The notes beneath the pieces were generated by a model. It was not told where the DNA came from, made no database searches, and saw nothing but the letters and a program-made list of their open reading frames with translations. From contig CM082577.2 of assembly GCA_040954595.2 (NCBI GenBank), positions 11,813,654-11,877,653 of the forward strand: a stretch of DNA of 64,000 bases, written 5' to 3'. Position numbers and translations under genes: made by a program. This document shows positions 25,961-58,816 of the stretch, one piece after another. The first letter of the stretch is position 1. Each line of letters opens with the position of its first letter. The stretch is from Balanoglossus misakiensis (Eukaryota; Animalia; Hemichordata).

Positions 25961-26214
25961 AAATCGCTAGAAGACACTTGAAGGAGACACCAGTTCGATG
26001 ATTGCTGGGACTGGTTCTGTGTGGTCCTGTACATGTCCAAAATCAACAGTTTCTATAATCTCAGTTCTATTAGAGAGAAGGAAAAACTTGAATAGACAAG
26101 TAATAAATACATTTCACATATCAAATTATTCCAATTCAACAATAATACGGATGCCTGTGGGTATGACATCTTGTTGTCAGCAAAGCCCTGAAGTTTCCAA
26201 CATGCCAGATTAAT

Positions 26215-27500: not shown

Positions 27501-27654
27501 CGGGTCGGCATAATTAAGTTGAGTGTTGATGAAACAAAGAGAAATGGCGAAAGAGGATTTGGCGATTGATTATTATAATTTATAACAGGTTCTCAATGTC
27601 TTCAATGTTGTATGAAGGTCCCATATGTTGCCTTCAATAGTACTGCTGGCTTTA

Positions 27655-30513: not shown

Positions 30514-30621
30514 TAGCTCTGTGTGGCAGGGCTGTGTTGTTACGGCAAGCCCTCCACCCTCCACCCATCCACTGTGGGTGGAGGGCTCGCCATAACAACA
30601 CAGCCCTGCCACACAGAGCTA
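30514..30621. mobile_element. Second copy of the 108-bp palindromic MITE, carried by the segmental duplication
   Basis: Same sequence and flanks, with two substitutions. Confidence 0.75.
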
Positions 30622-36519: not shown

Positions 36520-39500
36520 CTGCATAACATGTGCAACATTCCTATTTGATGCTACCATATCATTACTATTATAGTACTGAACTGCTCTGACTAAATTACC
36601 ATCCCTGACTGTCTTGTATACCTGTTTCCTGTCAATAAAAACATTGTCACATGATGATTCTACCTGTGTGATATCTATGTTGAATTCATCTTCAGAACCC
36701 TCAATTTCTGAAACATCACTCTGCAGATCAGAATCAGATGCCTGCAGTACCTCCAAAATAATGTCCCAAACTCTATCAACATGTTCACCAGAGAAAAGGC
36801 AAAAACTTGACTGGAGCAAGGCTTTGTTCTCAATGAACTGGACATATTTCACAATTTGTGATATTAATGCTCTTGAAAACCCAGTTACAATATCTGCCCC
36901 AATAAACATTTCATTCTCACTTCTCAAATTCACAGGAACATACTGTATCATGACTGGAGCACAGGCACCTACATTGTAATGAACATACATCACAGCATGT
37001 GTGTAAAATAACATTGGAATTTGGGTTATCAACAAATGACTTGAGTATAAACTCTCTCCTGCAGGAAGACTGGTTTTTACAGTAATCTTTCATCAATGTT
37101 GAAATTCTACTGTTTCTAAGGCAACCTGTATGACACTGGTCATAACAGTAGAATCCCTGCCAGCTCCTACCAGTCTCCTGCAGATAGTCATCTATATCAT
37201 TTGGCATTTAGAATTTGAACAACTGATTGGTAAATCATATATGTAATTAGTATACATGTACTTACTGGCTGGTCAATGTTTGTTTGTGATTTTATATCCT
37301 GTATCGACAATACTTGAATTGATGGAGAAAGAGCGTGAGGAAACGGCAATGCGCTGTCAATAGGTTTGATGTAACATGACATGTGCAACATTCCTATTTG
37401 ATGCTATATCAATACTATTATAGTACTGAACTGCTCTGACTAAATTACCATCCCTGCCTGTCCTATATACCTGTCTCCCGGAAATAAAACTGTCCTTGGC
37501 ACCCCAATATTGATAAACAGCCTCACGCATGGACAATCTAAGCTACGGTGGCAAAAACAATTGACCCTGAGGAAAAGTGGAAAATTCATAAAGGAGGAAA
37601 GAATTTCAGATTTCATTGCATCTGTTTGTGGAGAGTGGTACTGATTATTTAGTGAGAAATCATCGAGTACCCAATGATTGATTCTGATCCTTACCAAGAA
37701 TTGGATCAAACAAGAATTAAGCATACCCACACCATTCCACTGAAAGATAAATAAAAGTCAATGGAAAGTCCAACTATTTGTCCATTAAATCTTCTGCATG
37801 ACTTGGGTCATGGTCAACAATTTTTTCCAGGAGCTCATTTTTCTCTTCTTCAGACATTGAGGCGATGTTAATTAGTTTGAGACTGAACATACTTTGAGTT
37901 GCCGTTTCCTTTCCTCAAGCTGTTGAAATGCTTCTTCGCCACTGCGACCAAGTGGTCCTCCTGGTCTTCCTCTTCCCCTGGGCCTTTACCCCCTCCCCCT
38001 GCATCTGCCCCCTCTACCTCTATATGTAGTTGGTCTTGCAGTGTCCGTATCAGTTGAAGGTATTGAACCAGAACTCTGAAAAGAATGGTTGATACAGATC
38101 TTGCATAATTTAGTATGGGGTGGGTATAGAGTTTGGATGAAGAAATTTGGTAAATCTGTAAATGTTAATAGGATGTTCGGAATGGACTAAAATGTTTGCT
38201 TGCATGGTACTTACGGACAGTTTGCGTTACAGAATGTAACATGACTATTTCGTTTTTAGCAATGTGTAACTAGATGTAAAATTCAAATGCTATTGGGCAC
38301 ATCCACTTTTGCTTTGTTTAATCGGCGATATGTTGTGCGCTATGTGCATTGTGTTGAGTGGTAATGTAGAAAAATTTGGTTTCAACTTTATCGTCCTCTT
38401 TGTCTTCAGTCTGGTTGTTCAAATCCTGATTGGAAACGCAATTTTCAACAAGTTGTTGCTCCCAGTTTCCTCTTTGTTCGATCTGGCATACAATCACTCT
38501 AAAATTATTCTAACATAACACAGCGTCTGTGTCATATGATGACTAATTGTTACAAATACATATGACTACTATCACAAACAGTTATTATAATATTAACCCT
38601 TTACATTTACAATTACAACTTCTGTACTGTCCATTCTAGGGTACTCTGTAAACAATTTCTTAGCGATGTATTATGGCGATGCTATCAGCTTCATGTTGCT
38701 GCATTTTCTTACTTGGATGTCTTTGCCGTTTTGGTCTTAGAACAGATGTCTTGCCTCTGGTAAATTACCATGTTAGTTAATAGTCGAATGTCCATCATCA
38801 AAGCTGCCCATGGTGATGTAGAATAAGTTGGTTGTGGATGATGATTTCCGTTTTGTGGCTAGTGATGTTTTTATAATTAGATGCAAATTAGTCCAATGCT
38901 GCATTGAATTAGTCGACTGAGATAGATGGGTAAAAAAGTCTACCACATATAAATTAGTCAGCAGTGAATGGTGAAGTTATTGGCAGAGCAGAAAGCTATA
39001 AAATGTACAGTGGTCCAGAGTGTGAAGTGACTGCAGTTAATACAATTAGATGTAATCTTAAGACCTCATCTTCCAGTAGCTCCTTTGCTCTGCAATTGCC
39101 TTCCTTTGCTCATCCCATAGAATATGCAAATCCTGGTTGTCCCCACAGACTTCTTCTGCATTTGTGCAGCTGAAGATATTCTGGACATCTTCATGACTGT
39201 CAGCAGAAAATTCCAGCATTTCTCCTGATAACTTAATTGTCACGAAGTCTCCTTTCTCTTTTCACTGCATTGATATCAGTTACTTCAGGGATCAGCATCC
39301 AGCTACACAACAGACCACGTCGGTCAGGCTGACACAATGCAGACAGTGTGCTTCTATCATTGTAACACAGGGTTAAGTCTTCTGCCTCTTTTCTTCCGAG
39401 AGATTTTCTTCATTCATTGCCGACTCTCTTTTGAATTTTGATGCTGGTGCTGTGGGTTTTTCACACATGTCTCTGCCACAGTTTTCTTTAAACAAGCACA

Positions 39501-40939: not shown

Positions 40940-42330
40940 GTTACCTGAAATTCAGAAGGTAGTTGATCTTCTTTAAAAAAAGCCTTGTCAAATGTTACAT
41001 TCCTCAGAGCCAAATGGGTGGCACTGTTCTTCTTTAGGTAGTGTCTTTCAGTGTCACCAGTATTGGCTAGTGGTCCATGGTCGCATTCCATGGAATTACT
41101 GTTGCCATAATTGACATGCCAAGTGTGCTCAGCTATGACATGATGAATCACACCACCCCATATCTCCTGCACAAATAAGAAATTGTAAAAGAAACTATAT
41201 CAAATTCAAATCAAAATCAGAGGTATTAAAATAAATGAATTTCTGACATAGAAGCAAACAAGTTGAAAACAACTGCATAACTGCACAATTTCAATACTGT
41301 CATGGCTATTTTTACAGGTAGTTTGACCCCCACCTTATGATAGGATGATCAGTTAGTAACATTGTCTCTAAAGTTAAATAAATAAAAGACTGATTACAAG
41401 ATGGAAAGCTGGTAAAATCTTTATCTTCTTGGATAAGTTCTTGGCAGCATGCCAAATGTTGAATGTGTGAATGCTTGATGTCTGGGTGATCATTTCCTAT
41501 AAGATTGGCATTTAAAGTAAGTCTTGAAAAACATCAACCACGGCTTCTCGACGACCACCAATATTCACAAAGTTCCGACTTCAGTCACAATCTTCAAACC
41601 AATGAACCGGTAGGCACCACACAAGACAGGCAAATTACTATTAGGTTGGATCGTCCTCTTTTGAGCCTGTGTACAGCAGATGTGTCATTCAAATAAATGT
41701 TTTTGTATTTTCTTCACTGTGAACCCAATTGCAAAGCCATTGCCTGTGCAAACCAAAAACTTTAGTTATGGACATCAATTGCAAGAACACTATAACTGAA
41801 ATCTTAAGGGTTAAAGGCCGAGCCACTTGAGAAGAACAATCTCTCACTTGATGATATTAACAAAAATTGACTGTTCTCCAGCGAAGTGATAAGCGTAAAT
41901 GTTTCCGTAATAACGCTGTGTCTAATGGACGAGACCCTGTCTCAAAATTGGGGAAATGGTGGTTTCTTCCAAACCTATCCAGCATCGTGACAAGGGTGGT
42001 GCCTCTTGTTTTTCGATTGGAATTGTAGACGATGTTGTACGGGCGTTTCACACACTGCATCTTTGTAAGACAACTGACATCTTTTGGCATCATGAAAATG
42101 ACCAATTATGTTACCTGTAATTCAGAATGTAGTTGATCTTCTTTAAAAAAGCCTTGTCAAATGTTACATTCCTCAGAGCCAAATGGGTGGCACTGTTCTT
42201 CTTTAGGTAGTGTCTTTCAGTGTCACCAGTATCGGCAAGTGGTCCATGGTCGCATTCCATGGAAGTACTGTTGCCATAATTGACATGCCAAGTGTGCTCA
42301 TCTACGACGTGATGTATTACACCACCACAA
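40940..42330 (-). mobile_element. Kolobok-type transposase exons, with one exon duplicated (~40945-41170 and ~42115-42330)
   Basis: WGGVIHHV..EHTW..CDHGPL..YLKKNSATHLALRNVTFDKAFLKKI; DHPDIKHS-like exon at ~41420-41750. Confidence 0.7.
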
Positions 42331-42759
42331 TAATGTAGGCACGACACAAGACAGGCAAATTACCGTAAGGTTGGAACCAAACTCCACAGCAAGGCTACTA
42401 GACCTGAGTATCAATTCAATGTGGCAACGCGTGGCTTTTATAGGAGCAAAACTAATCAATTCACTGACACCTGGTCACGCTTATATGTAAATAAAGTAAG
42501 CAACAGATCTAGAGGTACATCTGGCCTCGAACAAACCTCATCACAGTTAACGTACGCTCCGAATGCACAATGCTGTCATGGTGGTTGACATGTATACCTT
42601 CTGGCAGAAAATCATGAAAGTGTCGTTGAACCAGCAGCTAATGACGACAAAACAATGCCTAAAATCACCATGGTGTTATCATCATGTGCTGATGGTTTTA
42701 AGAGGGTGTCTAACACTATGTCATGATTGGACAGGTCTGCTGTTGTAAGAGGTTCTACT

Positions 42760-43330
42760 GGTGCTGTTCTGAGTGTTTTTGTGTGTGTGGAAAGCATCTT
42801 GCAGCCTCTGTTGACAGATGTTTTGTATTTCTTGCTTCCTACAATGCAACTTCTTCCGTTCTTTGCGAGCTTGTATTGAAGCTGCTGCCACCAGCTCAGA
42901 CTTCTCATCATCACTTTTGGCTTCTAACCACACAGTCTTATTCATGGTGAACAATGATGTACGCCTCAGAGACTAGAGTGGTGATGTTTGGTTTGACTGT
43001 GAGGAGGTGATCTAAATACGCAAACATGCGCTCTGTTTGTTTGTTGTGTTGAGGTACGCTCTGGGTGGATTTTGTCATGCTGGGTGTTACATTAACATAC
43101 TTTCCTGCTGGAAGAAAATCACTGAAATGGCGCTGAACCAGTTCAGACGGACAAAACAATAACTTATTTAAATCATCATGTGGTGATGGTTTTAGGAGGG
43201 TCTAACACTATGTCATGATTGACTGGAACTGAATCAAACATGATACACTTTCCTTGTACAAAATCATCAAGGTTTAATGGAAGCAGCCTGACAGAAGTAA
43301 ATGAGAGGTCTAGTATAGTATGTATGCACA
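42760..43330 (-). mobile_element. DDE transposase C-terminal fragment, superfamily uncertain
   Basis: DFLPAGKY..TQSVPQHNKQTERMFAYLDHLLTVKPN..EAYI / MFTMNKTVWL. Confidence 0.5.
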
Positions 43331-44210
43331 TCAGTTATGGCTATGTCGATTCTATAACTTTCCATGCAATGAATGGGTCCAGGAACTGTAGCTTGTCCAG
43401 CAGCCAACTCCTTCTCTTGGTTGTGTTCCATGCGCTCCCACTACTCTGGGGTTTCTTTTGCCTTGACGTAGTTGTTTCTGAGATATCGCAATTTTATTTT
43501 AACCCATTCAGCATTCAGCTGAAAAATAACACCGTTTTATCAAGTCAAACACAATAACTACTGTGATCAATACAAATCACAATTTTACTCAGAATCAAAG
43601 TACTGAATGCCTGTCCATGAAGACTGTATTTTAGCAGCAGACATATTTTTTTCAAGTAACCCCCCCCCCCCCTACAATAACTACCCCGGTATGTGAAATG
43701 CAGTATTTTAAAATCGAGACATTGGTTTAGCTGGTGGGCCTTTGTAGGTGTCTCCACTTTTTATTTCGTCAGCAACATCGTACTCTTAACTTTTACCTGT
43801 TTTTCCCGGTCATGATCCAATTTCTTCGAGTGCATGCTCCTTTTTGTCCCTGTTTTTAAAATCAGGTGAACGTACGTTGAACAGTAAAGTAATACTCGCC
43901 CTACAGGGGGTAAATACCGTACTACTTGTGAGTGCACCGACTGCGTGTACCGGTATAATACCTACACTAAGCGACCGATCCTTGCCTTAACCACTAACTT
44001 AACAACTATCTTAATACTAGAGAAATGTGAGACAAAACTGTCAGCGATGACGGACTTTAACATTTCCTGGCAGCTTGCAATGGTCTTCAAGTTCATATTT
44101 ATCTCTCACAGTATAAAGACGGCATTTTTTGTTTTTGTTTAATATTTTGACATGAGACTGAACGCCTGCTGGCGACACAAATACACGCATGCAAGAATAA
44201 ATCAGTCCAT

Positions 44211-45144
44211 TTGACGGTCTCTACACACCCTCTGAAGTCCCGGAGATGGATCTGTTGGTGTTCGTTACAGTGGCGCGTCATGGTGAGAAGAGTCCAGGCC
44301 GCCGTCTGCCTGTCGTATCTGTCTTCGGAGGTCCCTCTGACGGTGACTACCACCGGCTTCCTGCCCTGGTTCATACAGAGCAATTCTGTGAAGCTTTGTC
44401 CTGGGCTTCCCAGGTCGAGGGATCTTCCGTTCTCTCCAGGCCAATGTCTCCCAGCGCAGCCACGCCCGGGTGTTGTAAGAGTTCGCCGACGGTCTGGCGT
44501 TGGTCCTTGGTCATGTATGGTGCCACTCGTGGGTTAACTCCAAGGGCTATTGGAAAATCTTTTTCCCCCGGCAGCGGGTCCGGGTATCGATCTGGCTCGG
44601 AGAATACCTGTAGGCCTCCGAGGAGTCGGATCCGATAGTCTGGAAGGACACCAACATCGTAGTCAGTGAGGTCTTGTGGAGTTATTGGAGCGTCCTCCAC
44701 CCTACATTTCTCTGCGCAAGCTTGAGGGTAGAAACAGGCATCGATTCCCCCGGGTGTTGATGGGTCCCGCGCTACTGTTTCCGCCCTCGTCATTTCTGGT
44801 GGCTGTGTCCGGGTTGATGATGGTCTCCGGTGAGGCCGGATTTCCCGGAACTCTTCTTCACGCGCTTGCGACACCTATCTGAGCAGCACGCTCAGAATGC
44901 GCCAGTGGATGAGGATCGCTGGTGTGGTGGGGGAGCTCAGCCGGAACTTGTACGGTACCTCCCATCCCTGGAAAACGCACAGGCGTTTCATCATTACCAT
45001 ACTTTCGGGTGAACACAAGGATTCAGACGGGATCCGTCCAGGTCCGCCCCTGCGAATATAGAAGTCCAGTAAGTCAGAGATCTCCTTCCCCGGACCACAC
45101 AGCACCGGAAACTTGGACCAAAGTTCCACTAATTTGTCTTCCAA
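44211..45144 (-). pseudogene. TatD-fold protein copy A (internal stop, frameshift, 3'-truncated)
   Basis: IALGVNP, AALGDIGLE, PVVVTVRG, IHLRDF; upstream FRLSSPTTPAILIHWR motif. Confidence 0.75.
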
Positions 45145-45224
45145 GACCCCCGTAACTATGGAACAGAGGCCCTCATTAACAAACCCGAGTGATGTGAGAG
45201 ATGACTAAAAGTATGACTGCTCTT

Positions 45225-45600
45225 ACCTAATAAATGTTCTTGGCCATGATGCACATATACATGAACGGACAACATGTCTTAGGCAGCATGCCCAGTCTTC
45301 TGTTCTGTCGACGATTTCTCGTGGATCCGTCTTAGGATTGGCATATAAAATGTCCATAGGCCACCACACCGGTTTGGTCTCTGGTTTGCTTCACTTGCAT
45401 TTGTTATCCTTTAAAAATGGAACCAATGATCGGAGCGTGTGCAGGTTGACGTGCGAAAGTGATCCACCGCTGTATTCAGGTCGCCTGAGGTCAGGAAGTT
45501 CAATACTCTTGGCACGTGATGAGGTTTCTTCTTGGGACGCGTCCAGATCGGTATGCAGAGAGTGTGATATTATCGACAGAATGTGCTGACTTATTGATGC
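45225..45600 (-). pseudogene. NRF1/EWG-like DNA-binding domain fragment
   Basis: Hand translation: LSHVNLHTLRSLVPFL...KPETKPVWWPMDILYANPKTDPRE....EDWACCLRHVVRSC. Confidence 0.65.
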
Positions 45601-46074
45601 GGTGAGGTGCTGAGATCTGCTCTTCTCTTTGCTCTTCTATCTGGTTTTGTCATAATTATTTCAATATGTTTCGAACGAATTACGGCGAAAACACGCATAT
45701 ATAGTTGTCTGACTTCGTTGGCTGGTTGACACTGTGGGTCTCTTCAGTTAAGGTTTATTAACTAAAATGTTTAAAATTCAAGCAGAGTTGGCAGTTCGGT
45801 ATTTAATTAGGGATCAACAGGTACCGAGATACCATATACGCAACGTGAAACATCAGCAGTTTATTGATATATGACTCTGACCTCGTTAACACTGAGGTCA
45901 CGTATATATGAATTGAGCAAAGTGGCGGGAACAAAATTAGTTACAATGTAAACTCTCTATCTCTAGTGTTCTTTCCGCTATAGAAATCTAATTCACTGAA
46001 GAAATGACATAAATGTTCTGTGTTTCGTGAAATATGTGATAATTTACATAACATTTGCATATAATTTAAAATAA

Positions 46075-46306
46075 CGGGTGGTGGTTGTGAGGCGGTTAGG
46101 ATAGTGTCTACATTTTGGGTCACCGAAGTTCTCAGCAGCTCAGTTCCATGGATGAGGTATTTTCTTTTGCTGGTGATTGGGTCAAGGAAAGATGTGATGA
46201 CTGCTACTTCAAAGGCCGTTTTTTTTTCTGAAATCTGATCACGTTGTTGCACAGCATCTGCCAGGCTATTATATTCCACACACATTAAATTACTCATTGT
46301 GGTCAA
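46075..46306 (-). pseudogene. N-terminal part of an NRF1-like paralog
   Basis: KKTAFEVAVITSFLDPITSKRKYLIHGTE matches KKTSLEVATVTTFVDRLTGERKFIVHGSE of ORF 58262. Confidence 0.6.
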
Positions 46307-46453
46307 TTCTTAATTCCTATTTTATTTCTATACAATAGGATCCATGAAAGTACAAAGCAATACAATCAATGAAAATAATTCAGTGTACACATGGCAATTG
46401 AAACTGGTTGAAGACAGAGACCTTAACATTAACATCAAACTTTATGGTGTTTT

Positions 46454-46615
46454 TCAATAATCTAACTTCCTGTTCTTCATCTTGGCCCAGACAGCCGCAG
46501 CCTTGGACACATCAAACTTCATTATGTCTTCTCCTTCCACACTAATGAAGAGCAACTGCTTCAGTGTCCTTTCAGCAAGTCTGTTTGCGAGAGATGTTTT
46601 AATCCTGCCAATTAT
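46454..46615 (-). mobile_element. hAT transposase C-terminal (dimerisation) fragment; copy at ~51583-51745
   Basis: RIKTSLANRLAERTLKQLLFISVEGEDIMKFDVSKAAAVWAKMKNRKL (ZNF862-like). Confidence 0.75.
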
Positions 46616-46719
46616 ATACAGTGCGTATACTTGTAACCAGCTTCCGTGCCTCCACACTAATGCCTTTACCAATCTCTTTAGGGCAGCAGGGACAGTGCCT
46701 CCATTTCTCTTTCTTCTGA

Positions 46720-47218
46720 CCGGCGTTTTACTGTGGATCTTCCTTGGGGCCGTCAGTCCGTTCAACCATATCCTGTCCCCCTGCTTCAGAGAGACAGGGG
46801 AGATCCCTGGTACCGCCAAGCTGGGCTGCGGCTCTGAAGAGCTGGGAGGACCCCACCAACCGGACGCGACTTCTTGGGTCTCGTTGTCCTTGCCACTCTC
46901 TATGGTGCGCCGTATGGGTAGATCGGGTTGTGTTAGCAGGCGGATGTCCCTGCACATTCCTTGCTCGGCATACTCAACCGGCATCGCCATCGCCTTTTGG
47001 GGGCGTGGGGGTTGGGGGTTCGTGTGTGGCATGTTTTCGACAATCCAGGGTATCGGGAACATGACGTCCGCTTCTCTTTGTATGTTGAAGATCCACCCCC
47101 ACTTTCCCTTGGATTTCGCCAGGGAGTATTGGTCCAAGATTGCCTCTTCGGCTTCTCCCCTCGGCGCCATCATGACGCCATGTACCGTATTACCTCTCGG
47201 GGGTCGAGGTGACGGCAT
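46720..47218 (-). CDS. Unknown ORF X, divergent from the TatD-like gene; copies at ~50760-50950 and ~51850-52340
   Basis: MMAPRGEAEEAILDQYSLAKSKGKWGWIFNIQREADVMFPIPWIVENM is conserved, with many synonymous changes, in the 50760 paralog. Confidence 0.5.
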
Positions 47219-47241
47219 GCCCGAGTGGCTCTTCTCACGTC

Positions 47242-48375
47242 ATGGTAATGATGAACCGCTGATGTGTCTTCCAAGGGTGGGAAATGGCAAACCGATTCTG
47301 ACTCAGCACCCCCAACACGCCGGCAATTCTAATTCATTGGCGGGTCCTCAGCATACTGCTGAGGTGGATACCCCAATCACGGAGGGATGAGTTCCGAGAA
47401 ATCCAACCCCGCATGAGATCGTCATCACACCGGAGGGAGGAGAGTCGGGGCTATCTGAGAGAGACAACACAGGAATGGCAACCAGAGAGGACGGGGGCGG
47501 AAGCAGTCGCACGGAATCCATCGACGCAAGAAAGGAGAGAGGACGCGCCAGGGGGTTTTAATGCATTTTTTAACCCCCAAGCGTGCGCGGAGGAGTGCCG
47601 AGTGGAAGACGCGCCCACTACCATAGATGACCTCACTGACTACGATGTTGATGTCCCCCCCGATAACCGCATATGACTCCTCGGGGGGTCTCCAAGTTTT
47701 TTCCGAACCAGATCGCTACCCGGACCCACTGCCGGGGGAGGAGGGATTCCCACTGGCCATCGGCGTGAACCCCCGAGTAGCGCCTAACATCACCGCGACC
47801 AGCGCCAGACAGTCGGCGAACTTCTACAACACCCGGACGTGGCCGCGCTGGGAGACATTGGCCTGGAGCGAACGGAAGATCCCTCGACCTGGGAAGCCCA
47901 GGACAAAGTATTCACAGAATTGCTCTGTATGAACCAGGGGAGGAAGCTGGTGGTAGTCACCGCCCGGGGAACCACCGAAGACAGATACGACAGGCAGACG
48001 GCGGCCTGGACTCTTCTTACCATGACGCGCCACTGTAACCAACACCAACAGATCCATCTCCGGGACTTCAGAGGGTGTCTACAGACCATGGGGGACTGGC
48101 GGCGGTATTTTCCGGACACCTATTTTGGATTTTCGGCGGCCGTCCGCCAATTCGACGAACGGCAGGTGGAGGCGTTGCAGGCCATCCCGGAGGACAGAAT
48201 CCTGAAGGAGACGGAATCACCCGGCGGACGTGTGTGGGAGACACAACTAATGAACACCCCAGCCTTCCTGGAAGACGTGGCGCTGGAGGTGGCGAGGCTG
48301 CGTTGGAACGTCCACCCGACAGCTGCTGGCGCAGACGTCCGAGAACGCCCGCTGTCTGTACAGGCCATAGACTGA
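47242..48375 (+). pseudogene. TatD-fold protein copy B (frameshifted)
   Basis: ORFs 47413, 47627 and 47839 together give the copy D peptide. Confidence 0.8.
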
Positions 48376-49034
48376 ATGAGCAGTGAGATTGCAAGCTGCC
48401 AGGAAATGTTAAAGTCCGTCATCGCTGACAGTTTTGTCTCACATTTCTCTAGTATTAAGATAGTTGTTAAGTTAGTGGTTAATGCAAGCATCGGTCGCTT
48501 AGTGTAGATATTATACACGCGGTCGGTGCACTCACAAGTACCGTAGTACGGTATTTTCCCCCTGTAGGGCGAGTATTACTTTACTGTTCAACATACGTTC
48601 ACCCGATTTTAAAAACAAGGACAAAAAGGAGCATGCACTCAAAGAAATTGGATCATGACCGGGAAAAACAGGTAAAAGTTAAGTGTACGATGTTGCTGAC
48701 GAAATAAAAAGAGGAGAGACCTACAAAGGCCTGCCAGCTAAACCAATGTCTCGATTTTAAAATACTGCATTTCACATACCGGGGTAGTTATTGTAGGGGG
48801 TGGGGGGGTACTTGAAAAAAAAATGTCTGCTGCTAAAATACAGTCAGCAGTGTCTTCATGAACAGACATTCAGTACTCGTCTGCGCGTGTATAATATCTA
48901 CGCTAAACGACCGATGCTTGCCTTAACCACTAACTTAACAACTATCTTAATACTAGAGAAATGTGAGACAAAACTGTCAGCGATGACGGACTTTAACATT
49001 CCCTGGCGGTTTACAACCTCGCTGCTCGTTCCGT

Positions 49035-50150
49035 CTATGGCCTGTACAGACGGCGGGGTTTCTCTGCTGTCTGTGCCAGCAGCTGCCGGGTGGACGTTCC
49101 TCTAAGTCTTGCCACCTCCAACGCCACGTCTCCCAGGAAGGCTAGAGTGTTCATGTGTTGCGCTTCACATACGCGCTCGCCGGGCGACTCAGTCTCGACC
49201 AGGACTTTGTCTTCAGGGATGGCCTGCAATGCCTCGAATTGCCGGACGGCCGCCGAGAATCCGAAATAGGTATCCGGAAAATACCGCCGCCAGTCCCCCA
49301 TGGTCTCTACGCACCCTCTGAAATCCCGGAGATGGATCTGTTGGTGTTCGTTACAGTGGCGCGTCATGGGAAGAAGAGTCCAGGCCGCCGTCTGCCTGTC
49401 ATATCTGTCTTCGGTGGTCCCTTTGACGGTGACTACCACCGGCTTCCTCCCCTGGTTCATACAGAGCAATTCTGTGAATACTTTGTCCTGGGCTTCCCAT
49501 GTCGAGGGATCTTCGGTTCTCTCCAGGCCGATGTCTCCCAGCGCGGCCACGTCCGGGTGTTGTAAGAGTTCGCCGACCGTGTGGCGCTGGTCGTCGGTTC
49601 GGTAAGGCGCTACCCGGTGGTTCACGCCGATGGCCAGTGGGAATCCCTCCTCCCCCGGCAGTGGGTCCGGGTATCGATCTGGTTCGGAGAAAACTTGGAG
49701 ACCCCCGAGGAGTCGTATGCGGTAATCGGGGGGGGGGGACACCAACATCATAGTCAGTGAGGTCATGTATGGTGGTGGGCGCGTCTTCCACTCAGCACTC
49801 CTCCGCGCACGCTTGGGGGTTAAAGAATACATCGAAACCCCCTGGCGCGTCCTCTCTCCTTCCCTGCGTCGATGGATTCCGTTCGACTTCCTCTGCCCCC
49901 ATCCTCTCTGGTTGCCGTTCCTGTGCTGTCTCTCTCAGATAGCCCCGACTCTCCTCCCTCCGGTGTGATGACGATCTCATGCGGGGTTGGATTTCTCGGA
50001 ACTCGTCCCTCCGTGATTGGGGTACCCACCTCAGCAGTATGCTGAGGACCCGCCAATGAATAAGAATTGCCGTCGTGTTGGGGGTGCTGAGTCGGAATCG
50101 GTTTGGCACTTCCCACCCTTGGAGGACACATAAGCGCTTCATCATTACCA
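49035..50150 (-). pseudogene. TatD-fold protein copy C (frameshifted)
   Basis: ORFs 49792..50181 and 49035..49832. Confidence 0.8.
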
Positions 50151-52366
50151 TGGCCAAATACAAATCAATACAATCAATCAATCAAAAGAAGCAATACCAA
50201 TCAATGAAAATAATTCAGTTTACACATGGCAATTGAAACTGGATGAAGCAATATTGACCACATCTTTCTCAGTTAGTCTTTTCTGACCTTTCGATATCAC
50301 TGGTCCACTTGTATTGTTAACTGCTTCTGTATCATTTTTGCGTTTTGACTTCTTACTGCAAGTGGTGACTTTGTTTTTGTTTACCTATCTTCCAAAGCAG
50401 TAGTAGACTTTCTTTTACAGGAAATGTGCTCTCCTTTACTCTCATTTTCTTTTGAAAGTTCATCCATGAACATCCGGAACTTTCTCGCTGCGCCTCTCTT
50501 CCCACTTTTTCCGGCTTCCTCCAAATCGTTCTTACCTTCTGTCAGTAACATTTCCACTCGCTCTGATTTTGGAGTACCGTTTACGGTACATGTCAAATTT
50601 TTTTTATATCTTGCAAGTTTTTCTGTGCAAGACTGGAATGAAAACATGTCACGGTACATGTAAGTAAAAGAGAAATAAAAGAGGGTAATCCCCATCAATA
50701 TAACTACAAATGTGTTTCGGTCACAATGGATTTTAGAATTTCAATAGCTCATGCACCACTTAGGGGCTTGGGGGCCGGTGGTTCCGCGTTGGGTTGACGT
50801 GCGACATGTTTTGAACAATCCACGGTATAGGGAACATGACATCCGCCTCTCTCTGTATTTGGAAAATCCATCCCCAGTTTCCCTTGGATTTCGCCACGGA
50901 GTATTGGTCTAAGAGTGCCTCTTGGGCTTCTCTTCTCGGTGCCATCATAATTCCGTGGATTACATCCCGAGGACCAAGTGGCTCTTTTCATGTCATCTAT
51001 GGTCAACTTAATTGGGCATTGGTCTGGGCATGTTCTCGCACGGTCACCAATATGCCTGTAGTTACCACTCTCATGGTCGCTAACCATTATCCCTCTCTCC
51101 CACTGAGATGGACGAAAAACATGACGAGGGGTCTGTCTCCTGAACGAAACCTGTGAAGGCAACAATTGATTATTGCCTGACTCTTACTTCCACTACCCTT
51201 ACAGCTGTGTGAGCGGGTAGTCACCTCTGCCAATGAAACATTCACAGGAAAGACAGGTGCTGTAACCTCACATGTAGGGATATCCGATTTCAACCTCTCA
51301 TGATTAAGTCTGTCAATAAGTCTGACCTGAGCATTTTGGTAGCCTGTCACACTTTCAACTGCCAATTCTGTACTGAGTGTTTGGTTAGTTTTCAACCTAT
51401 TGAATTGATGCAATCCATATGATAAGTAGATGAGATGCATTTGTGCTTTGGTGAATTTAGACAATAGGATCCATGACAGTACAAAGCAATACAATCAATG
51501 AAAATAATTCAGTGTACACATGGCAATTGAAACTGGTTGAAGACAGAGACCTTAACATTAACATCAAAGTTTATGGTGTTTGTCAACAATGTAACTTCCT
51601 GTTCTTCATCTTGCCCCAGACATCCGCAGCCTTGGACACATCAAACTTCATTATGTCTTCTCCTTCCACACTAATGAAGAGCAACTGCCTCAGTGTCCTT
51701 TCAGCAAGTCTGTTTGCGAGAGATGTTTTAATCCTGCCAATTATATACAGTGTGTATACTTGTAACCAGCTTCCGTGCCTCCACACTAATGCCTTTACCA
51801 ATCTCTTTAGGGCAGCAGGGACAGTGCCTCCATTTCTCTTTCTTCTGACCGGCGTATTACTGTGGATCTTCCTTGGGGCCTTCAGTCCGCTCAACCATAT
51901 CCTGTCCCCCTGCTTCAGAGAGACAGGGGAGATCCCTGGTTCCGCCGAGCTGGGCTGCGGCTCTGAAGAGCTGGGAGGACCCCACCAACCGGATGCGACT
52001 TCTTGGGTCTCGTTGTCCTTGCCACTCTCTATGGTGCGCCGTATGGGTAGATCGGGTTGTGTTAGCAGGCGGATGTCCCTGCACATTCCTTGCTCGGCAT
52101 ACTCAACCGGCATCGCCATCGCCTTTTGGGGGCGTGGGGGTTGGGGGTTCGTGTGTGGCATGTTTTCGACAATCCAGGGTATCGGGAACATGACGTCCGC
52201 TTCTCTTTGTATGTTGAAGATCCACCCCCCAGTTTCCCTTGGATTTCGCCAGGGAGTATTGGTCCAAGATTGCCTCTTTGGCTTCTCCCCTCGGCACCAT
52301 CATGACGCCATGTATTACCTCTCGGGGGTCGAGGTGACGGCATGCCCGAGTGGCTCTTCTCACGTC

Positions 52367-53497
52367 ATGGTAATAATGAAGCGCTTATGTGTCTTCCAAG
52401 GGTGGGAAGTGCCAAACCGATTCAAACTCAGCACCCCCAACACGCCGGCAATTCTAATTCATTGGCAGGTCCTCAGCATACTGCTGAGGTGGGTACCCCA
52501 ATCACGGAGGGACGAGTTCCGAGAAATCCAACCCCGCATGAGATCGTCATCGCACCAGAGGGAGGAGAGTCGGGGCTATCTGAGAGAACGACAGGAACGG
52601 CAACCAGAGAGGATGGGGGCAGAGGAAGTCGCCCGGGCTCCATCGACGCAGGAGAGGAGCGAGGACACGCCAGGGGGTTTTGATGCATTTTTTAACCCCC
52701 AAGCGTGCGCGGAGGAGTGCCGAGTGGAAGACGCGCCCACCACCATAGATGACCTCACTGACTACGATGTTGGTGTCCTTCCAGACTATCGGATCCGACT
52801 CCTCGGAGGCCTACAGGTATTCTCCGAGCCAGATCGATACCCGGACCCGCTGCCGGGGGAAAAAGATTTTCCAATAGCCCTTGGAGTTAACCCACGAGTG
52901 GCACCATACATGACCAAGGACCAACGCCAGACCGTCGGCGAACTCTTACAACACCCGGACGTGGCCGCGCTGGGAGACATCGGCCTGGAGCGAACGGAAG
53001 ATCCCTCGACCTGGGAAGCCCAGGACAAAGTATTCACAGAATTGCTCTGCATGAACCGGGGGAGGAAGCCGGTGGTAGTCACCGTCAGAGGGATCACCGC
53101 AGATAGATACGACAGGGAGACGGCAGCCTGGACTCTTCTCACCATGACGCGCCACTGTGATGAACGCCAACAGATCCATCTCCGGGATTTCAGAGGGTGC
53201 GTAGAAACCATGGGGGACTGGCGGCGGTATTTTCGGGACACCTATTTTGGATTTTCGGCAGCCGTCCGCCAGTTCGACGAACGGCAGGTGGAGGCAATGC
53301 AGGCCATCCCGGAGGACAGAATCCTGGTGGAGACGGAATCACCCGGCGGACGTGTGTGGGAAACACTGAGAATGAACACCCCAGCCTTCCTGGGAGACGT
53401 GGCGCTGGAGGTGGCAAGGCTGCGTTGGAACGTCCACCCGACAGCTGCTGGCGCAGACGTCCGAGAACGCCCGCTGTCTGTACAGGCCCTAGACTGA
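52367..53497 (+). CDS. TatD-fold protein copy D: uninterrupted ~376-aa frame with non-canonical active-site residues
   Basis: ATG at 52367 is in frame with ORF 51473..53497; GVNP, ALGDIGLE, PVVVTVR, IHLRDF, YFGFS, IPEDRILVETESP. Confidence 0.8.
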   Translation: MVIMKRLCVFQGWEVPNRFKLSTPNTPAILIHWQVLSILLRWVPQSRRDEFREIQPRMRSSSHQREESRGYLRERQERQPERMGAEEVARAPSTQERSEDTPGGFDAFFNPQACAEECRVEDAPTTIDDLTDYDVGVLPDYRIRLLGGLQVFSEPDRYPDPLPGEKDFPIALGVNPRVAPYMTKDQRQTVGELLQHPDVAALGDIGLERTEDPSTWEAQDKVFTELLCMNRGRKPVVVTVRGITADRYDRETAAWTLLTMTRHCDERQQIHLRDFRGCVETMGDWRRYFRDTYFGFSAAVRQFDERQVEAMQAIPEDRILVETESPGGRVWETLRMNTPAFLGDVALEVARLRWNVHPTAAGADVRERPLSVQALD

Positions 53498-54087
53498 ATG
53501 AGCAGTGAGATTGCAAGCTGCCAGGAAATGTTAAAGTCCGTCATCGCTGACAGTTTTGTCTCACATTTCTCTAGTAGTATTACGATAGTTGTTAAGTTAG
53601 TGGTTAAGGCATGCATCGGTCGCTTAGTGTAGGTATTATACATGCGGTCGGTGCACTCACAAGTAGTACGGTATTTTCCCGGCCCCTGTAGGGCGAGTCA
53701 TGGATCATGACTGGGAAAAACAGGTAAAAGTTAAGAGTACGATGTTGCTGACGAAATAAAAAGTGGAGACAGTCCACAAAGGCCCACCAGCTAAACCAAT
53801 ATCTCGATTTTAAAATACTGCATTTCACATGCCGGGGTAGTTATTGAAGGGGGGGGGGGGGGGGGTACTTGAAAAAAAAATATGTCTGCTGCTAAAATAC
53901 AGTCAGCAATGTCTTCATGAACAGACATTCAGTACTCGTCTGCGCGTGTATAATACCTACACTAAACGACCGATGCTTGCCTTAACCACTAACTTAACAA
54001 CTATTGTAATACTAGAGAAATGTGAGACAAAACTGTCAGCGATGACAGATTTTACATTCCCTGGCGGTTTACAACCTCGCTGCTCGT

Positions 54088-54470
54088 TCAGTCTATGGCC
54101 TGTACAGACGGCGGGCGTTCTCTGCTGTCTGTGCCAGCAGCTGTCGGGTGGACGTTTCTCTGAGCCTCGCCACTTCCAACGCCACGTCTCCCAGGAAGGC
54201 TGGGGTATTTATGTGTTGCGTTTCCCACACGCGCTCGCCCGGGCGATTCGGTCTCGACCAGGACTTTATCTTCAGGGATGGCCTGCAATGCCTCCACCTG
54301 CCGTTCGTCGAATTGCCGGACGGCCGCCGAGAATCCGAAGTAGGTATCCGGAAAATACCGCCGCCAGTCCCCCATGGTCTCTACGCACCCTCTGAAATCC
54401 CGGAGATGGATCTGTTGGTGTTCGTTACAGTGGCGCGTCGGATGGACGTTTCTCTGAGCCTCGCCACTTC
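54088..54470 (-). pseudogene. TatD-fold protein copy E (3' part only)
   Basis: TRHCNEHQQIHLRDF..KVLVETESP. Confidence 0.8.
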
Positions 54471-55081
54471 CAACACATACATTATAACAATACAATACTT
54501 CTTTAGATCACGCTTCCAAATGGACATTTTTTCCAATCGATCTTTGGTGCACTCGCTCAAAATGTTCACGAAAACTCTTCCCACATCTTCGCCGAAAGAC
54601 CAAAATGTCAAACTCATGGTTGGTGGTTGGCAAAATAAGTTTGCAGCACAGAGGACGCTCGAAACAAAAGTTGTTCACTTTCGAATTGATGTGATAATTA
54701 TGAGTTTTGCTCACTACACTGCTGCGATGCGACATGAGTCGATAACAATGCAGGGGTGGGTGGTTAGTTGATGCGTTCGTATTTGCTTCATTTTTTTCGC
54801 CGCTAACTGGGGGAATCTTGCCATCTGGGTCGTATCAGCGACTTCATACTAAATGAGGACACGTCAACTCACCTAATATTGCCGCCGATACAGACGGAAG
54901 GTATATTTCTGTCGTAGATTGTGGACCAATTCTTCTGGAATTCGAAGAGAACGATAGTGTTTCTTGGTATCAGGAATCAGTCTGGCGTCCCTCGCCTTCA
55001 TCCGGAGATCCTGGGGCTGAGTATGGGATCCCCGGGCTGACCCCTAGGTCATTAGGTGATTCATCTGGGCGTTGGGGGGCT

Positions 55082-56340
55082 TCAAACCCCCTGATACAAC
55101 ATCTGTGGGGTAGGGTTTACTGCCGGAGGAATGCACGCAGCGTCGCTGAAAACAGGTCCCAGTAGTTGTTTCGCGAGCATTGTCGCAGCTTGTATAAGTT
55201 CCTCATCCGATATTTCATCAAGTTGCTCAAGATTAAAATTCAAATCAAAATCTGACTCTAGCCTTTCAGACATGGTGGCCGGCTGCATTTTGAGCTCTTC
55301 TTGATGTTTCAAAATTTGCACGAGCTGATGTTGTATCGGTGACTCGCCTCGTGTAGTCGTCGACTCGATCGGGAAGTAGAAGTAGTTCTCGATAGTATTC
55401 GGTAGTTGTGATTGATGCGCTAGAACAGCAAGGCTGATAGACTGGTGGCTGGCTGGAAGTTGGCTGATAGACTGGTGGCTGGAGAATATGGCTGGTTGGT
55501 TGATGGTGTTGTGACGTTTCCAATGATGGGGCCATGCTTATGTTAAATGAAGCGACTGATATGTCCATGGGGATGGGGTGACTGCAGGTGTGAATCACTG
55601 GCTGGAACTCTGGCTGCTCGGGTGTAGATGTCCTGAAAACTAAAACAAAGAAACAAATATTAACATTGACATCTTGGCAGACCCTGGAGCGATCTCTGCT
55701 TAACATTAAACTGAGTGGCCGGTTTAGCTTATTAAAAATATTATTTTTATTATTATAAACTTTATTTCGGACTCATGGTCCATATTACAATGTACATAGT
55801 ACATATGTAATCAAATCAGAGGTTTGTTGGTCAAGGGTTTATAAAATGTTCACTCACCAATTTCACTAGATGAATCGCCATAGGCCATGAAAAGTTGATT
55901 CATGGCATCCGGAATATCATGTACATCTACCGTTACCAGTTGCTCGAGGGGCTCATCAGAACTCATCAGAATATTTGTGTCACCTAATAAAAAAAAAAAT
56001 ACAAAAAATGTGTTATACTATGTTTGACAAATGTGTGTTGAACAAACTGCATAACAAATACTATTTCAATTATCATAATAATTTCATAAATTATGTATTA
56101 CACTCACCAGTTTTTTCAGATACATTGTAAAATGCATAGCACGCCCTGATGGTTTTCTTCATTATTTCAGTCCATCCACAGCCACCTGCAGTCCCCGGTT
56201 TGCTCAGATTGACGTAGGGTACATCAGCCGGCCACCAGTCTGGTTTCTTGTCATCCTTCCCCCAAAGTGGATGACCGCGCTTCTCCGTGTTGAGAACTAA
56301 CTTGGGAATCAGGTTGCGTAAACGCTTATCATTCAGCTTT
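55082..56340 (-). pseudogene. Spliced NRF1/EWG-like gene fragment: DNA-binding exon followed by Q/P/S-rich and acidic exons
   Basis: ~56107-56340 reads KLNDKRLRNLIPKLVLNTEKRGHPLWGKDDKKPDWWPADVPYVNL..WTEIMKKTIRACY. GT-AG bounded exons follow at ~55858-55983 and below 55632. Confidence 0.7.
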
Positions 56341-58261
56341 GAAACAGATCCTAGGAGATAGTATTTATGCTTGTTCTAGGGAGCCTATTTTTTGCTCAGT
56401 TTATGAAGTCAATTCTGCTGCCACATTTTTGAAAACTGTAAAAGTTTCAACATTCTTCCATTACGTCCAGAGATATGACCAAAGAGTTGACACAAACAAG
56501 CTTGTGATTGTGTTCATTCCCTGAATGTTTGAAAAAAAAGGCAGCCGAATTGACCCCTCACAATCCTGCTTAGTTTACCTCGAATCAGACGTCCCTATTT
56601 ATGTGTGTGATGCATTGTAATCGTACAGTCTGATTCGAGACGGTGTACGTGTTTACCATATTACACTTGTCTGCACATTACTTGGAAACTTTCACCACAA
56701 AAGAAACAGCATGTAGGTAGATGGTTTGTAATATTGCCGGCCTGAGGTAGATAAGTTTTTCACCGATTCAGATTTAGATATGCACAGTTGACAATAGTAT
56801 GCAAATCCTCATCTTGGCCCCCTACTCCGATGGAAATGTAAACTTTAAACATGCAGACAGTAAATAAGGAAACAAGTACATCAGCAGAAATAAACTGAGC
56901 TTACCTTGGTGTATGTAGATCAAAGTACACAGCCATGATGTAAACTGTAATGTCACTTTATTCAAAATTATCAATTCGTATCTGTGAAGAAAATCAGTAA
57001 AATATTGCTATTAATTGTAAACTCCCATAAATGTAGATAAATAGAAACATTGTATTAACCCTATTAATAAAGCGACAAAACCAGATAATTAATTGAAAAC
57101 TGAATAATATCATAGAAAGTAGAAAGCAGACATTTAGTGGTTAAACAATTTAAGGCAATTCTAACGTTAACGAAGCCTATTCTTCTCCAAGAAATGCCCT
57201 TCTTCTTCTTTCGTCCCTCTCCATCCAATATTCCCATTTCCCTTCCCTCCTATCTTCTAAGCATCGCTTGTAATATGCATGGTAACTATAGTATAGCTGA
57301 TTTTCAATGGGTGACCGTATACCTTTAACATGAATTCAACTCCATAAAAGTGAAGAAGCATGAGTGTCCTATCGGCAAATGCAAAAAAAAAAAAAAAAAA
57401 ATACTTGTGTTTATTAGAAAAAATATTTTAATCCAACCACCAGCAAATTCAAATTTTATGTTTTTTAGTTTGAAATAGAATGGTTTCTATGGTTGAAATA
57501 AAGGGTTTCTATGGTATATCCCTGTTGAGTATTTGACAAATGTATTTAATATTGCATGTATTAATTATGGTGATTTAGATGAAAATATTGACAAAATCAA
57601 ATGTGGTACTAACCATCATTAAAGTCTTATTAAGCATGCCTTCCAGATTTACATCCCTAATTTGGAAGTACGGTCTCCACAGCAGTTTGTTAAGTTCCTT
57701 TATTGGAATCCCTCTCGTGCTTTGACTTCTTAGGAGCTGTATAGATAAAAAAGACGAATGAACCATGTATGACTCGAACATAAAGTATGCAATTATGAAC
57801 AAAGGCATACTATGCAGGTCTCGGCTCCAGACGACCGCCGCTCCATACAAATCGACAACTTTACCGTATTTTTGGTAGATTAGGGAAAATGTCTACAGAC
57901 ATATCTGAAAGTTGAAAATTTAAATACAGAATACATCTCGATTTTAGAAATATGGTATTATGCAAGGAGTATTTTTAAATTTCAAATTCCAGTTTGTGAT
58001 GGGAAACGAAGGGTTAAAATTGGATTGAAGAAAAAAAGTATCTACTACATACTCTCTGTCGTATCTTGAGGCGTGGGTTCTTCCTCTTCTCGGAAATCAC
58101 CTGTATGGGGAGTTTAAGTACAAATTGTTAAAATCCAGAAAGAAACGAGCACTTAATTAATCCAAACTTGCAAACCATTTATTCTGCATTTATTTAAAAG
58201 CGTATCTGTTAAAAGCAAAAGTGACATAGTAAAACGGATATCAACTTACCTGTCAAAAGCA

Positions 58262-58816
58262 TCATTTTATAGAAAGAACAGCATGATGCCGCTGCACTTC
58301 CCTTCTAAGCATCTTGGTCCACTGGCCACGGGGTCCTTGTTTAAGTTCTGCGGGCGTCTCCGACGGGTCGCTGAACGGCACATCACTCGGCCGCCACTCC
58401 GGAGCGTTGTCCTGCTGGCCCCAGAGGGGGCGTGAACGGTCAACGGTCTTCCGGATGATGTCCGGCACTAGCTTGCGTAGCCCTTCATAAGCCATTACGC
58501 TTAGGGTACAACCCCATAGCGATAGCGCGACACAGTCTGGAAGGCGTTTGGGGTTGTCACTGTCACTGGATGGTGTTGAGGCTGTTGCTGTGGACACCGG
58601 CGTCGTGTTGCTGTTGGCGATGATGGTTGGCATGGATGCAGTGATCGATGATTGCAGACCTTCGCTGCCGTGAACGATGAACTTTCGCTCACCGGTCAAA
58701 CGATCTACAAAAGTTGTCACTGTGGCGACCTCGAGAGACGTCTTCTTCGAGAACATGTCGACCTGGCTCGACAAAATTCTCCAGCTACTGGTCTGCTTCT
58801 TGTTTAAACTCTCCAT
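58262..58816 (-). CDS. NRF1/EWG/P3A2-like DNA-binding domain protein, divergent
   Basis: LRKLVPDIIRKTVDRSRPLWGQQDNAPEWRPSDVPFSD..QWTKMLR aligns by eye with NRF1 LRAFIPEMLKYSTGRGKPGWGKESCKPIWWPEDIPWAN..SWTQALR (recalled sequence). Confidence 0.75.
   Translation of the reverse strand: MESLNKKQTSSWRILSSQVDMFSKKTSLEVATVTTFVDRLTGERKFIVHGSEGLQSSITASMPTIIANSNTTPVSTATASTPSSDSDNPKRLPDCVALSLWGCTLSVMAYEGLRKLVPDIIRKTVDRSRPLWGQQDNAPEWRPSDVPFSDPSETPAELKQGPRGQWTKMLRREVQRHHAVLSIK

Follow-up and report, generated by a model that had tools for sequence, protein, structure and literature searches.

A gene whose catalytic residues have all been exchanged may simply be wearing away, or it may encode a protein that gave up its chemistry and has been kept for something else. 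A gene cluster of the hemichordate Balanoglossus misakiensis raises this question. The window that we analysed, a stretch of 64,000 nucleotides (contig CM082577.2 of assembly GCA_040954595.2, forward-strand positions 11,813,654 to 11,877,653), holds between its positions 43590 and 54510 five copies, A to E, of an intronless open reading frame (ORF) with a TatD fold. Their number and their high GC content had been claimed in an earlier note made from the letters of the sequence, and both are confirmed, the number by tblastn of the 376-aa frame of copy D, by DNA alignment and by a hidden Markov model (HMM) of the family; GC is 0.57-0.60 in the 1-kb bins with copies, 0.33-0.45 in most of the window and about 39% in the window as a whole. 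The cluster consists of locally amplified and rearranged copies of a TatD-fold gene in which all eight metal-site residues were replaced, and we think it rather probable that the encoded protein is non-catalytic and acts by binding, not by cleaving.

A TatD fold with a replaced metal site

Copy D is open over 376 aa from its ATG, as the earlier note had reported for one copy, but a 1-nt insertion near 53422, which B has as well, throws the last ~22 residues into another frame than that of the family; the family ending, LLAQTAE(K/N)(P/A)RRLYRP followed by the stop, is retained in C and E. The protein consists of a helical domain (residues 1-55, named LHWR after its motif), a disordered linker (~56-95) and a barrel (~100-353). 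Pfam family PF01026 (TatD_DNase), whose curated cut-off is 27 bits, scores it at 64.1 (E 1.7e-17), the match spanning profile positions 57-233 of 253, and phmmer against the Protein Data Bank (PDB) retrieves YcfH at 3e-5, along with the TatD proteins of S. aureus and E. coli. An AlphaFold2 model built on a 65-row alignment has a mean predicted local distance difference test (pLDDT) score of 83.4, and exceeds 90 through most of the barrel. With this model, the top Foldseek matches in the PDB are 2gzx, 6l25, 4p5u, 1xwy, 1yix, 2y1h (TATDN3) and 8efg (TATDN1), at E of 1e-12 to 1e-10; 2gzx is matched at E 1.2e-12 with a target-normalised template-modelling (TM) score of 0.75, the range for 2gzx, 6l25, 4p5u and 1yix being 0.71-0.75, and 17 of the first 20 rows are TatD-family chains. 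As modelled, the D protein is a TatD TIM barrel, (alpha/beta)8, and the fold that the earlier note had read from motifs is thereby matched by solved TatD/YcfH structures at E of about 1e-12.

For the metal site, the 150 top-ranking relatives, of 753 retrieved, were each represented by their C-terminal 420 residues and aligned with the window copies, gaps being counted within the 150. The two His of HxH are present in 117 and 113 relatives (about 130 cover these positions), the His of GxHP in 133, the Glu and the Asp of GExGLD in 136 and 149, the His of PxxxHxR in 133, the His of HCF in 136 and the Asp of ETDxP in 127. The window copies have replaced all of them: the HxH positions are Phe and Asn in B, C and D, which read FFN there, and Cys and Tyr in A, which reads CFY, and the other six are Asn (H175N), Asp (E204D), Glu (D208E), Thr (T239), Arg (R273) and Glu (D324E). 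The motifs read GVNP (GVNH in C), GDIGLE, PVVVTVRG (VVVTARG in B, VVVTVKG in C), IHLRDF and ETESP, copy A reading CFY, GVNP, GDIGLE, VVVTVRG and IHLRDF, and every copy that covers a given motif has the substituted form. The readings of the earlier note (GVNP, GDIGLE, PVVVTVR, RDF, ETESP and no HxH) are borne out by this alignment.

The class II TatDs (YcfH, 1yix; the S. aureus proteins 2gzx and 6l25; human TATDN3, 2y1h, and TATDN2) are the best matches of the D protein in both sequence and structure and share its TIM barrel. They have the motif order HxH, GxHP, GExGLD, PxxxHxR, HCF and ETDxP, and the wider family to which the window copies belong keeps HxH. In contrast, the window copies have replaced all eight residues, are without HxH and are multicopy, and they and their relatives carry three further parts absent from Pfam, a far-N-terminal domain (NTD1), a Cys/His motif and the LHWR domain. 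According to Dorival & Eichman 2023 (PMC10085689), HxH defines group II TatDs (TATDN2, TATDN3, YcfH and YjjV) and helps to hold two metals, and in TATDN1 and TATDN3 a Glu, two His and an Asp coordinate two metals.

If the copies were nothing more than pseudogenes, decayed from the gene of an active TatD nuclease, the motif changes would be neutral and the 376-aa frame an accident of GC-rich DNA. In favour of such an account, every copy carries at least one frame-breaking lesion, the array is rearranged, and a long stop-free frame antisense to a neighbouring ORF (ORF X, described below) shows that open frames arise easily here. But copy D, with none of the eight metal-site positions, keeps 26 of the 27 other columns conserved at 85% or more (Fisher p 3.8e-7); when the threshold is lowered to 75%, it keeps 46 of 58 other columns against none of the eight. 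Replacement was aimed at the metal site and was not general wear.

All eight positions are present in 110 of the 150 relatives; one is missing in 19, two in 4, and three to six in 17, and none has lost all eight. A FastTree tree was built from 149 rows after masking of the catalytic columns; it leaves out window copies C and E, as well as two relatives in which fewer than 150 residues were aligned. On this tree the 17 relatives that miss three to six positions stand in about ten separate places, most of them beside fully canonical sisters. The nearest neighbour of D is a partly dead protein of Gigantopelta, P0115 (support 0.77, 31% identity). Multi-residue losses occur in P0004/P0043, P0123/P0124/P0133, P0041/P0100, P0051, P0067, P0089 and P0115. 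Lys often occupies the His position of PxxxHxR in relatives missing three to six residues, and some partly dead relatives are long, apparently intact predictions, such as the 1102-aa protein XP_056014015 of Ostrea edulis.

Selection on the coding sequence

At the protein level the copies are interrupted by in-frame stops, and they were compared on a DNA alignment. By the Nei-Gojobori method, the ratio of nonsynonymous to synonymous divergence (dN/dS, or omega) is 0.11-0.25 for the six pairs among A to D in the real frame, as against 1.1-2.4 in two control frames, and for E against C, D and B it is 0.10-0.13. Differences between copies are distributed over the three codon positions as, for example, 22/22/70, and this threefold excess at third positions appears in the real frame only.

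The copies are mosaic, and some of their blocks are far more diverged than others. Over 52780-52960, D differs from A by 0-1 differences per 180 nt and from B and C by about 23%; the identity of D with A there marks a gene-conversion tract. The N-terminal third of A, in turn, is about 33% different from that of the other copies. Between the type-1 and type-2 forms of the 52780-52960 block (58-60 codons) synonymous divergence (dS) exceeds 1 and omega is 0.04-0.08, and the N-terminus of A (112-114 codons) compared with B, C and D also gives dS above 1, with omega of 0.04-0.11. Both deep types read GVN(P/H) and have lost HxH, and RDF and ETESP are found in the E-type as well as in the D-type. Because both deep types carry the substitutions, these must predate the divergence of the paralogs; and because omega is low between deep blocks that share them, the loss is old and maintained by selection and not a product of decay. 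The earlier note had argued, from their presence in every covering copy, that the substitutions were older than the lesions, and their sharing by paralog types at dS above 1 upholds this.

Against plain decay, then, stand the loss of all eight catalytic positions beside near-complete retention of the other conserved columns, an omega of 0.04-0.25 with the third-position excess confined to the real frame, and substitutions common to paralog types separated by dS above 1. In its favour is one further result: where B, C and D diverged recently, in their N-terminal part, omega is 0.5-0.7 and differences are spread evenly over the codon positions, as would fit a relaxed constraint on the local copies. 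Neutral decay is in effect excluded, and we hold it very improbable that the copies are nothing but dying genes for an active nuclease. The earlier note had taken canonical relatives, in combination with dN/dS near 1 on this branch, as telling against a pseudo-nuclease; relatives with the canonical residues are indeed the majority (the 110 of 150), but dN/dS in the lineage is 0.04-0.25.

Sequencing contigs of the source organism came from one sample with three DNA runs; two of these match the stretch in part, and the third has almost none of its words. Over 52860-53360, 28 of the 40 best-supported variants in these contigs fall on third codon positions (by manual count), and none of the variant positions listed there lies in a motif codon. 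At 53425, contig depth is mostly for the form without the inserted base of D.

Binding protein or enzyme

Since the metal site is fully replaced and yet the coding sequence has been under purifying selection, binding is a better candidate than cutting for what the protein does, and its likely function, as we infer it, is that of a non-catalytic TatD-fold binding protein. The suggestion of the earlier note that this is a pseudo-nuclease or a nuclease of altered metal use gains support in so far as the phase-specific purifying selection and the 26 of 27 conserved columns kept speak for a maintained pseudo-nuclease or altered-site protein and against random decay; the anti-silencing role that it also raised has no support in these results. 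The window copies would be recent and probably non-functional derivatives of functional 'dead-TatD' genes elsewhere in the genome. In such genes the TatD cleft could have been kept for the binding of nucleic acid or of a partner, the LHWR domain might serve as a targeting module, and the dead protein may act on active nuclease paralogs as a competitor or a regulator. TatD nucleases are ubiquitous and of ancient origin, and a metal site erased from a scaffold that is kept, at omega of about 0.04-0.25, is the signature of a pseudo-enzyme; it provides a concrete protein for testing what the TatD cleft does without chemistry.

Several observations weigh against this reading. No intact copy was seen among the five in the window, and the damage to all of them lessens the weight of the finding; some of the frameshifts lie in homopolymer runs (the poly-C run of C, a G run in B) and are possibly assembly errors. 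The omega of the N-terminal part of B, C and D is, as described, consistent with relaxed constraint on these copies, and gene conversion mixes the histories of the copies, so that pairwise dN/dS describes the family and not each copy. A like signal in dN/dS would arise if a mobile element carried the gene and selection acted on it there, and it is from the selection signal only that we infer a current function in this organism. Finally, all three acidic ligands were swapped conservatively (E to D, D to E and D to E), which makes a carboxylate-only metal site, with residual or altered catalysis, conceivable.

It is because of these conservative swaps that a remodelled active site is the main rival to a binding role. 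The protein might still be a TatD-fold hydrolase, with a carboxylate-only (Mg2+/Ca2+) or metal-independent site and perhaps a new substrate. Three positions (E204D, D208E and D324E) stay acidic even though all five His are lost, the Arg at the HCF His could supply a positive charge, and strong purifying selection is as compatible with an enzyme as with a binding protein. The amidohydrolase superfamily has metal-independent members, LigI among them, and 4d8l is in the Foldseek list. According to PMC10085689, moreover, group I TatDs are active without the HxH pair. The last residue of FFN in copy D is the Asn that the group I motif (G/A)xN has there. However, both of the remaining B-site metal His are gone as well (T239 and R273); Ala at the equivalent of the bridging Glu strongly lowers the activity of TATDN1 and TATDN3, according to the same paper; and the HxH positions vary between paralogs (FFN in one, CFY in the other), as expected of a disused site. 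None of the papers that the literature searches returned describes a TatD with this residue set. All things considered, we regard continued enzymatic activity as unlikely.

A protein of this kind would have a parallel within the superfamily. The CRMP/DPYSL (dihydropyrimidinase-like) proteins are the textbook inactive members of the amidohydrolase superfamily, encoded by single-copy vertebrate genes and active in cytoskeleton signalling. They resemble the window copies in having a metal-dependent TIM-barrel hydrolase fold that has lost its metal ligands and is kept for a non-enzymatic role, and CRMP2 chains (5mkv and 2gse) are among the weaker Foldseek matches of D. They belong, however, to another branch of the superfamily, and we propose no evolutionary link.

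An animal gene family with new N-terminal domains

A phmmer search of 1.84 billion representative proteins at E <= 0.001 returned the 753 matches, 70 of them at E <= 1e-30 and the best at 5.2e-57 with 35% identity; a word-indexed homology search with the 376-aa frame gave nothing at E <= 0.001. In length the relatives range from 180 to 1543 aa, their TatD domain being C-terminal, and PF01026 was found in all 21 that were scanned, the only other Pfam match in these being to an ASCIZ zinc finger in P0005, with no stretch passing on its own. The order of parts is NTD1, which is helical, then the Cys/His motif, the helical LHWR domain and a class II (HxH) TatD barrel. Named members come from the hemichordate Ptychodera flava (XP_070541281) and from the molluscs Ostrea edulis (XP_056014015), Mactra antiquata, Pinctada imbricata and Gigantopelta aegis (XP_041357723), and two entries are filed under the metagenome-assembled genome of a clam symbiont, on short contigs. 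Annotations in the family read 'uncharacterized protein', as for the member from Ptychodera flava, or "3'-5' ssDNA/RNA exonuclease TatD-like", as for the one from Gigantopelta aegis; for part of the family such exonuclease labels are probably wrong.

Many relatives (for instance P0002, P0003, P0006 and P0009) align from residue 3-10 of D, through the motif ..GW..P..F.L.P.NSPA.L.HWR, and the start of the short-form relatives (368-392 aa) coincides with that of D. The N-terminal FRLSTPNTPAILIHWR domain, an extra one to the earlier note, is therefore common to the family and no addition peculiar to these copies. The window copies share with this unnamed animal family the LHWR-TatD order (with NTD1 in the long forms) and alignment over residues 3-353 of D; they differ from it in sequence, at 26-42% identity, and in the complete loss of the eight residues. 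This animal gene family is large and unstudied; its N-terminal domains are new, its copy number is high, and catalytic residues have been lost in it again and again.

Among 80 loci returned from metagenome contigs, the only family member was L001, the remaining 79 being generic TatDs of bacterial appearance at 26-34% identity; all 7 matches on viral contigs were generic TatDs at 27-29% identity; and a scan of prokaryote-genome contigs with P0167 gave one irrelevant weak match. On L001 (2699 nt) the gene stands alone, with its Cys/His, LHWR and TatD parts in three frames, as a result of either frameshifts or introns, and it keeps the canonical DSHFH, GLHP, GEVGLD, LHLRG and HLHCF, while ETDxP reads GTDAP. 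An ESM Atlas search with the N-terminal 400 residues of P0026 was uninformative, its best matches (0.80-0.81) being unnamed clusters.

The far-N-terminal domain next to the copies

The ORF that accompanies the copies, ORF X, had been described in the earlier note as divergent and as accompanying the gene; tblastn, HMM placement and alignment identify it instead as NTD1 of the same family, in inverted orientation. When relatives were compared with the window by tblastn (1182 high-scoring segment pairs), minus-strand matches appeared at 46859-47250, 50772-50954 and 51988-52378, corresponding to residues ~20-170 of the long relatives P0044, P0026, P0048, P0014 and P0015, with E down to 1.8e-12. 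In the family HMM, built from 11 long relatives, these stretches fall at positions 19-167 and the short-form copies at 356-763, and at the junctions beside B and D a position of about 19 on the minus strand abuts one of about 356 on the plus strand. It is from these two results, the tblastn matches of the long relatives and the HMM placement, that we take ORF X to be the family's own far-N-terminal domain, with the motif QY.LA...W.W...WI.EN.PH.DP...CRDIRL.

Three copies of the domain are present (Table 1). The second runs over 51583-52299, its N-terminal part resuming after a +1 frameshift in a G run, in the ORF 52103-52384. The third, a fragment 83% identical to the first, is colinear with copy C but separated from it by some 620 bp without detectable homology, whereas the other two are inverted with respect to B and D. 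Between the fragment and the first copy, the differences at codon positions 1/2/3 of the minus-strand frame are 9/1/18, and because of this phase bias we take the minus-strand frame to be the selected NTD1 frame. Folding of ORF X gave a mean pLDDT of 54.5, with a confident helical hairpin at residues 30-70 only.

A stop-to-stop plus-strand frame of 678 aa (51461-53497) crosses the antisense of ORF X into copy D, and at copy B the equivalent plus-strand frame antisense to ORF X is open for 309 aa (46461-47390); two such long overlapping frames on opposite strands are unusual. We considered the 678-aa frame as a longer protein and rejected it, its upstream 302 codons being antisense to NTD1 and the selection signal lying in the minus-strand frame.

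Structure of the array

The five copies form a 5.1-kb tandem repeat of inverted pairs, tail-to-tail and head-to-head, with direct-repeat spacing of 5052-5151 and long inverted arms that are 87-93% complementary. In both tail-to-tail pairs, B-C and D-E, two kinds of 3' flank (type-1 and type-2) meet at an identical point, and a truncated version of the same flank junction left of A, at about 43590, forms the edge of the array: homology of the A flank with the B and D flanks ends there, and the flank is seen in the inverted repeats I5, I23 and I24 as well. Locally, then, segments have been duplicated both in tandem and in inverted orientation, with gene conversion between copies.

Measured against the family frame, every copy is damaged. 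Copy A, whose 5' extent exceeds that of the other copies and takes in the helical region that precedes the LHWR motif, has lost 39 and 21 nt in frame; it carries a stop after LLR, a -1 shift after 44393 and a -2 shift after 44214, and its 3' third has been replaced. Copy B has a +1 shift at 47683, a -1 shift after 47794 and a +1 shift at 48300, the last common to D, with 4 stops in frame. In copy C, which keeps the family C-terminus, there are a +4 frameshift in a poly-C run at 49738 and a 15-nt in-frame deletion. Copy E extends from RHCNEHQQIHLRDF to the stop, with a +1 frameshift at 54240, and has at its 5' edge a fused duplicate of a C-terminal snippet (LEVARLRETS).

Table 1. Positions in the window of the TatD-fold copies, the NTD1 copies and associated segments.
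Feature	Position	Strand	Description
3' flank of copy A	43590..44098	-	~450 nt of type-1 flank, then the last ~75 nt of type-2 flank inverted; left edge of the array
Copy A	45204->44099	-	Most diverged copy; HMM positions 325-686
ORF X copy 1 (NTD1, 261 aa)	46454-47239	-	Head-to-head against the ATG of B; HMM positions 47-151, E 1.2e-20
Copy B	47242-48375	+	Short-form ORF, LHWR and TatD domains
B/C tail-to-tail junction	48376..49034	.	Type-1 flank of B to ~48822, then type-2 flank of C; repeats D13-D15, I7
Copy C	50181->49035, ATG 50151	-	HMM positions 358-423 and 524-763; longest ORF 299 aa (49035-49934)
NTD1 fragment, copy 3	50772-50975	-	Colinear, upstream of C; HMM positions 32-102, E 1.8e-14; repeat D4
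ORF X copy 2 (NTD1)	51583..52384	-	Head-to-head against the ATG of D; HMM positions 19-167, E 1.4e-13
Copy D	52367-53497	+	376-aa open frame from ATG
D/E tail-to-tail junction	53498..54087	.	Type-1 flank of D to ~53861, then type-2 flank of E
Copy E	~54470->54088 (feature entry 54088..54510)	-	5'-truncated, C-terminal ~125 codons; HMM positions 653-763
Conserved 3' segments	48376-48545, 53498-53665, 44098->43930, 49034->48870, 54087->53920		
High-depth N-terminal segments	44802-45268, 47137-47603, 52274-52740		

The first ~170 nt 3' of the stop are 93-99% conserved in all five copies, and thus better than the synonymous sites of the ORF, where dS is 0.2-0.3. These segments may be a constrained element of the 3' untranslated region, or they may have been homogenised recently.

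Copy number and a possible mobile carrier

In run X1, 45 of the 68 contigs over 52860-53360 (501 nt) are less than 95% alike. Contigs of this run on the N-terminal part of the gene (LHWR and linker) reach a word depth of up to ~3000, and those of X2 9000-28000, beside ~20-60 for the TatD part and the unique flanks. Word depth is not a copy number and gives a hint of further copies only; the genome may contain many more repeats of the LHWR/linker segment than of the complete gene.

On another rival account, an unclassified mobile element carries the gene, as a passenger or as its sole ORF; selection would then operate at the level of the element, and the cluster would be a set of nested insertions. 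The gene is intronless, GC-rich and multicopy, and it lies in a transposon-rich region; the family is scattered over animal phyla, and relatives at least 90% identical to one another occur on four chromosome-scale contigs each in Gigantopelta aegis and Mactra antiquata. The short forms share one start point, as 5'-truncated copies would, and a contig on the N-terminal part of A has a word depth of ~3000 compared with ~20-40 for exact single-copy contigs, a difference in depth and not in copy number.

However, Pfam scans of the ORFs of at least 75-80 aa across 42000-56000 and of the 21 relatives found no reverse transcriptase, integrase, recombinase or transposase in any of them, the nearest transposase fragments, both outside the array, being a Mutator-like one at 21.5 kb and a piggyBac-like one at 62 kb. 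No terminal inverted repeats or long terminal repeats bound a unit, the repeat search giving copy-to-copy matches only, with flank junctions common to the units; and the conserved 3' flank is not followed by a poly(A) or A-tract, the hallmark of a processed retrocopy. The 5.1-kb periodicity and the common junctions fit segmental duplication, and none of the seven matches on viral contigs belongs to the family. A search for a carrier through the flanks of relatives in metagenome, viral and prokaryote contigs produced one usable family locus, L001, with the gene only. With neither mobility domains nor terminal repeats, a mobile carrier is unproven; the clusters in Gigantopelta and Mactra and the depth hints do favour amplification or mobility, but we consider the carriage by an unclassified element that the earlier note had proposed doubtful.

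We find it quite unlikely that the family consists of selfish, self-amplifying nuclease genes of marine invertebrates, possibly a new TatD mobile element, in which the dead lineage is a selected, trans-acting antagonist or decoy of the active nucleases and one of about ten independent inactivations. The KP protein of the P element is a truncated, inactive repressor encoded by a transposon, and by analogy dead copies that recur in a multicopy nuclease family might compete with active ones. No mobility machinery was found in the present family, and the comparison is no closer than an analogy.

As far as search listings and the openings of abstracts show, full-text searches turned up no account of the family, nor of any inactive TatD or any TatD borne on a transposon. 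A figure legend of PMC6962438 has TATDN2-like genes among the transposon-like genes of the squid Hox region; the mentions of TatD there and in PMC5840709 concern ordinary TATDN2, and we set both aside.

Other features of the window

An Rfam scan of the window gave no match. The window is rich in transposon debris. A 402-aa ORF at 21458-22666 (minus strand) encodes a Mutator-like transposase (E 7.4e-26), with unnamed relatives at 82-83% identity and named ones at about 50% in Patella, Haliotis, Lottia and other molluscs. Two 163-aa ORFs at 26815-27306 and 30374-30865 (both minus strand) have near-identical matches to Tc5/pogo-type helix-turn-helix domains and lie about 3.5 kb apart, which points to a local duplication. 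A RecQ zinc-binding fragment is found at 36920-37207 and piggyBac-type transposase fragments at 61953-62425, again on the minus strand. To the right of the array, two minus-strand ORFs, at 56094-56375 (E 3.8e-14) and 58265-58966 (E 2e-10), match the Nrf1 DNA-binding and dimerisation domain (PF10491) and possibly represent another multicopy or transposon-derived gene.

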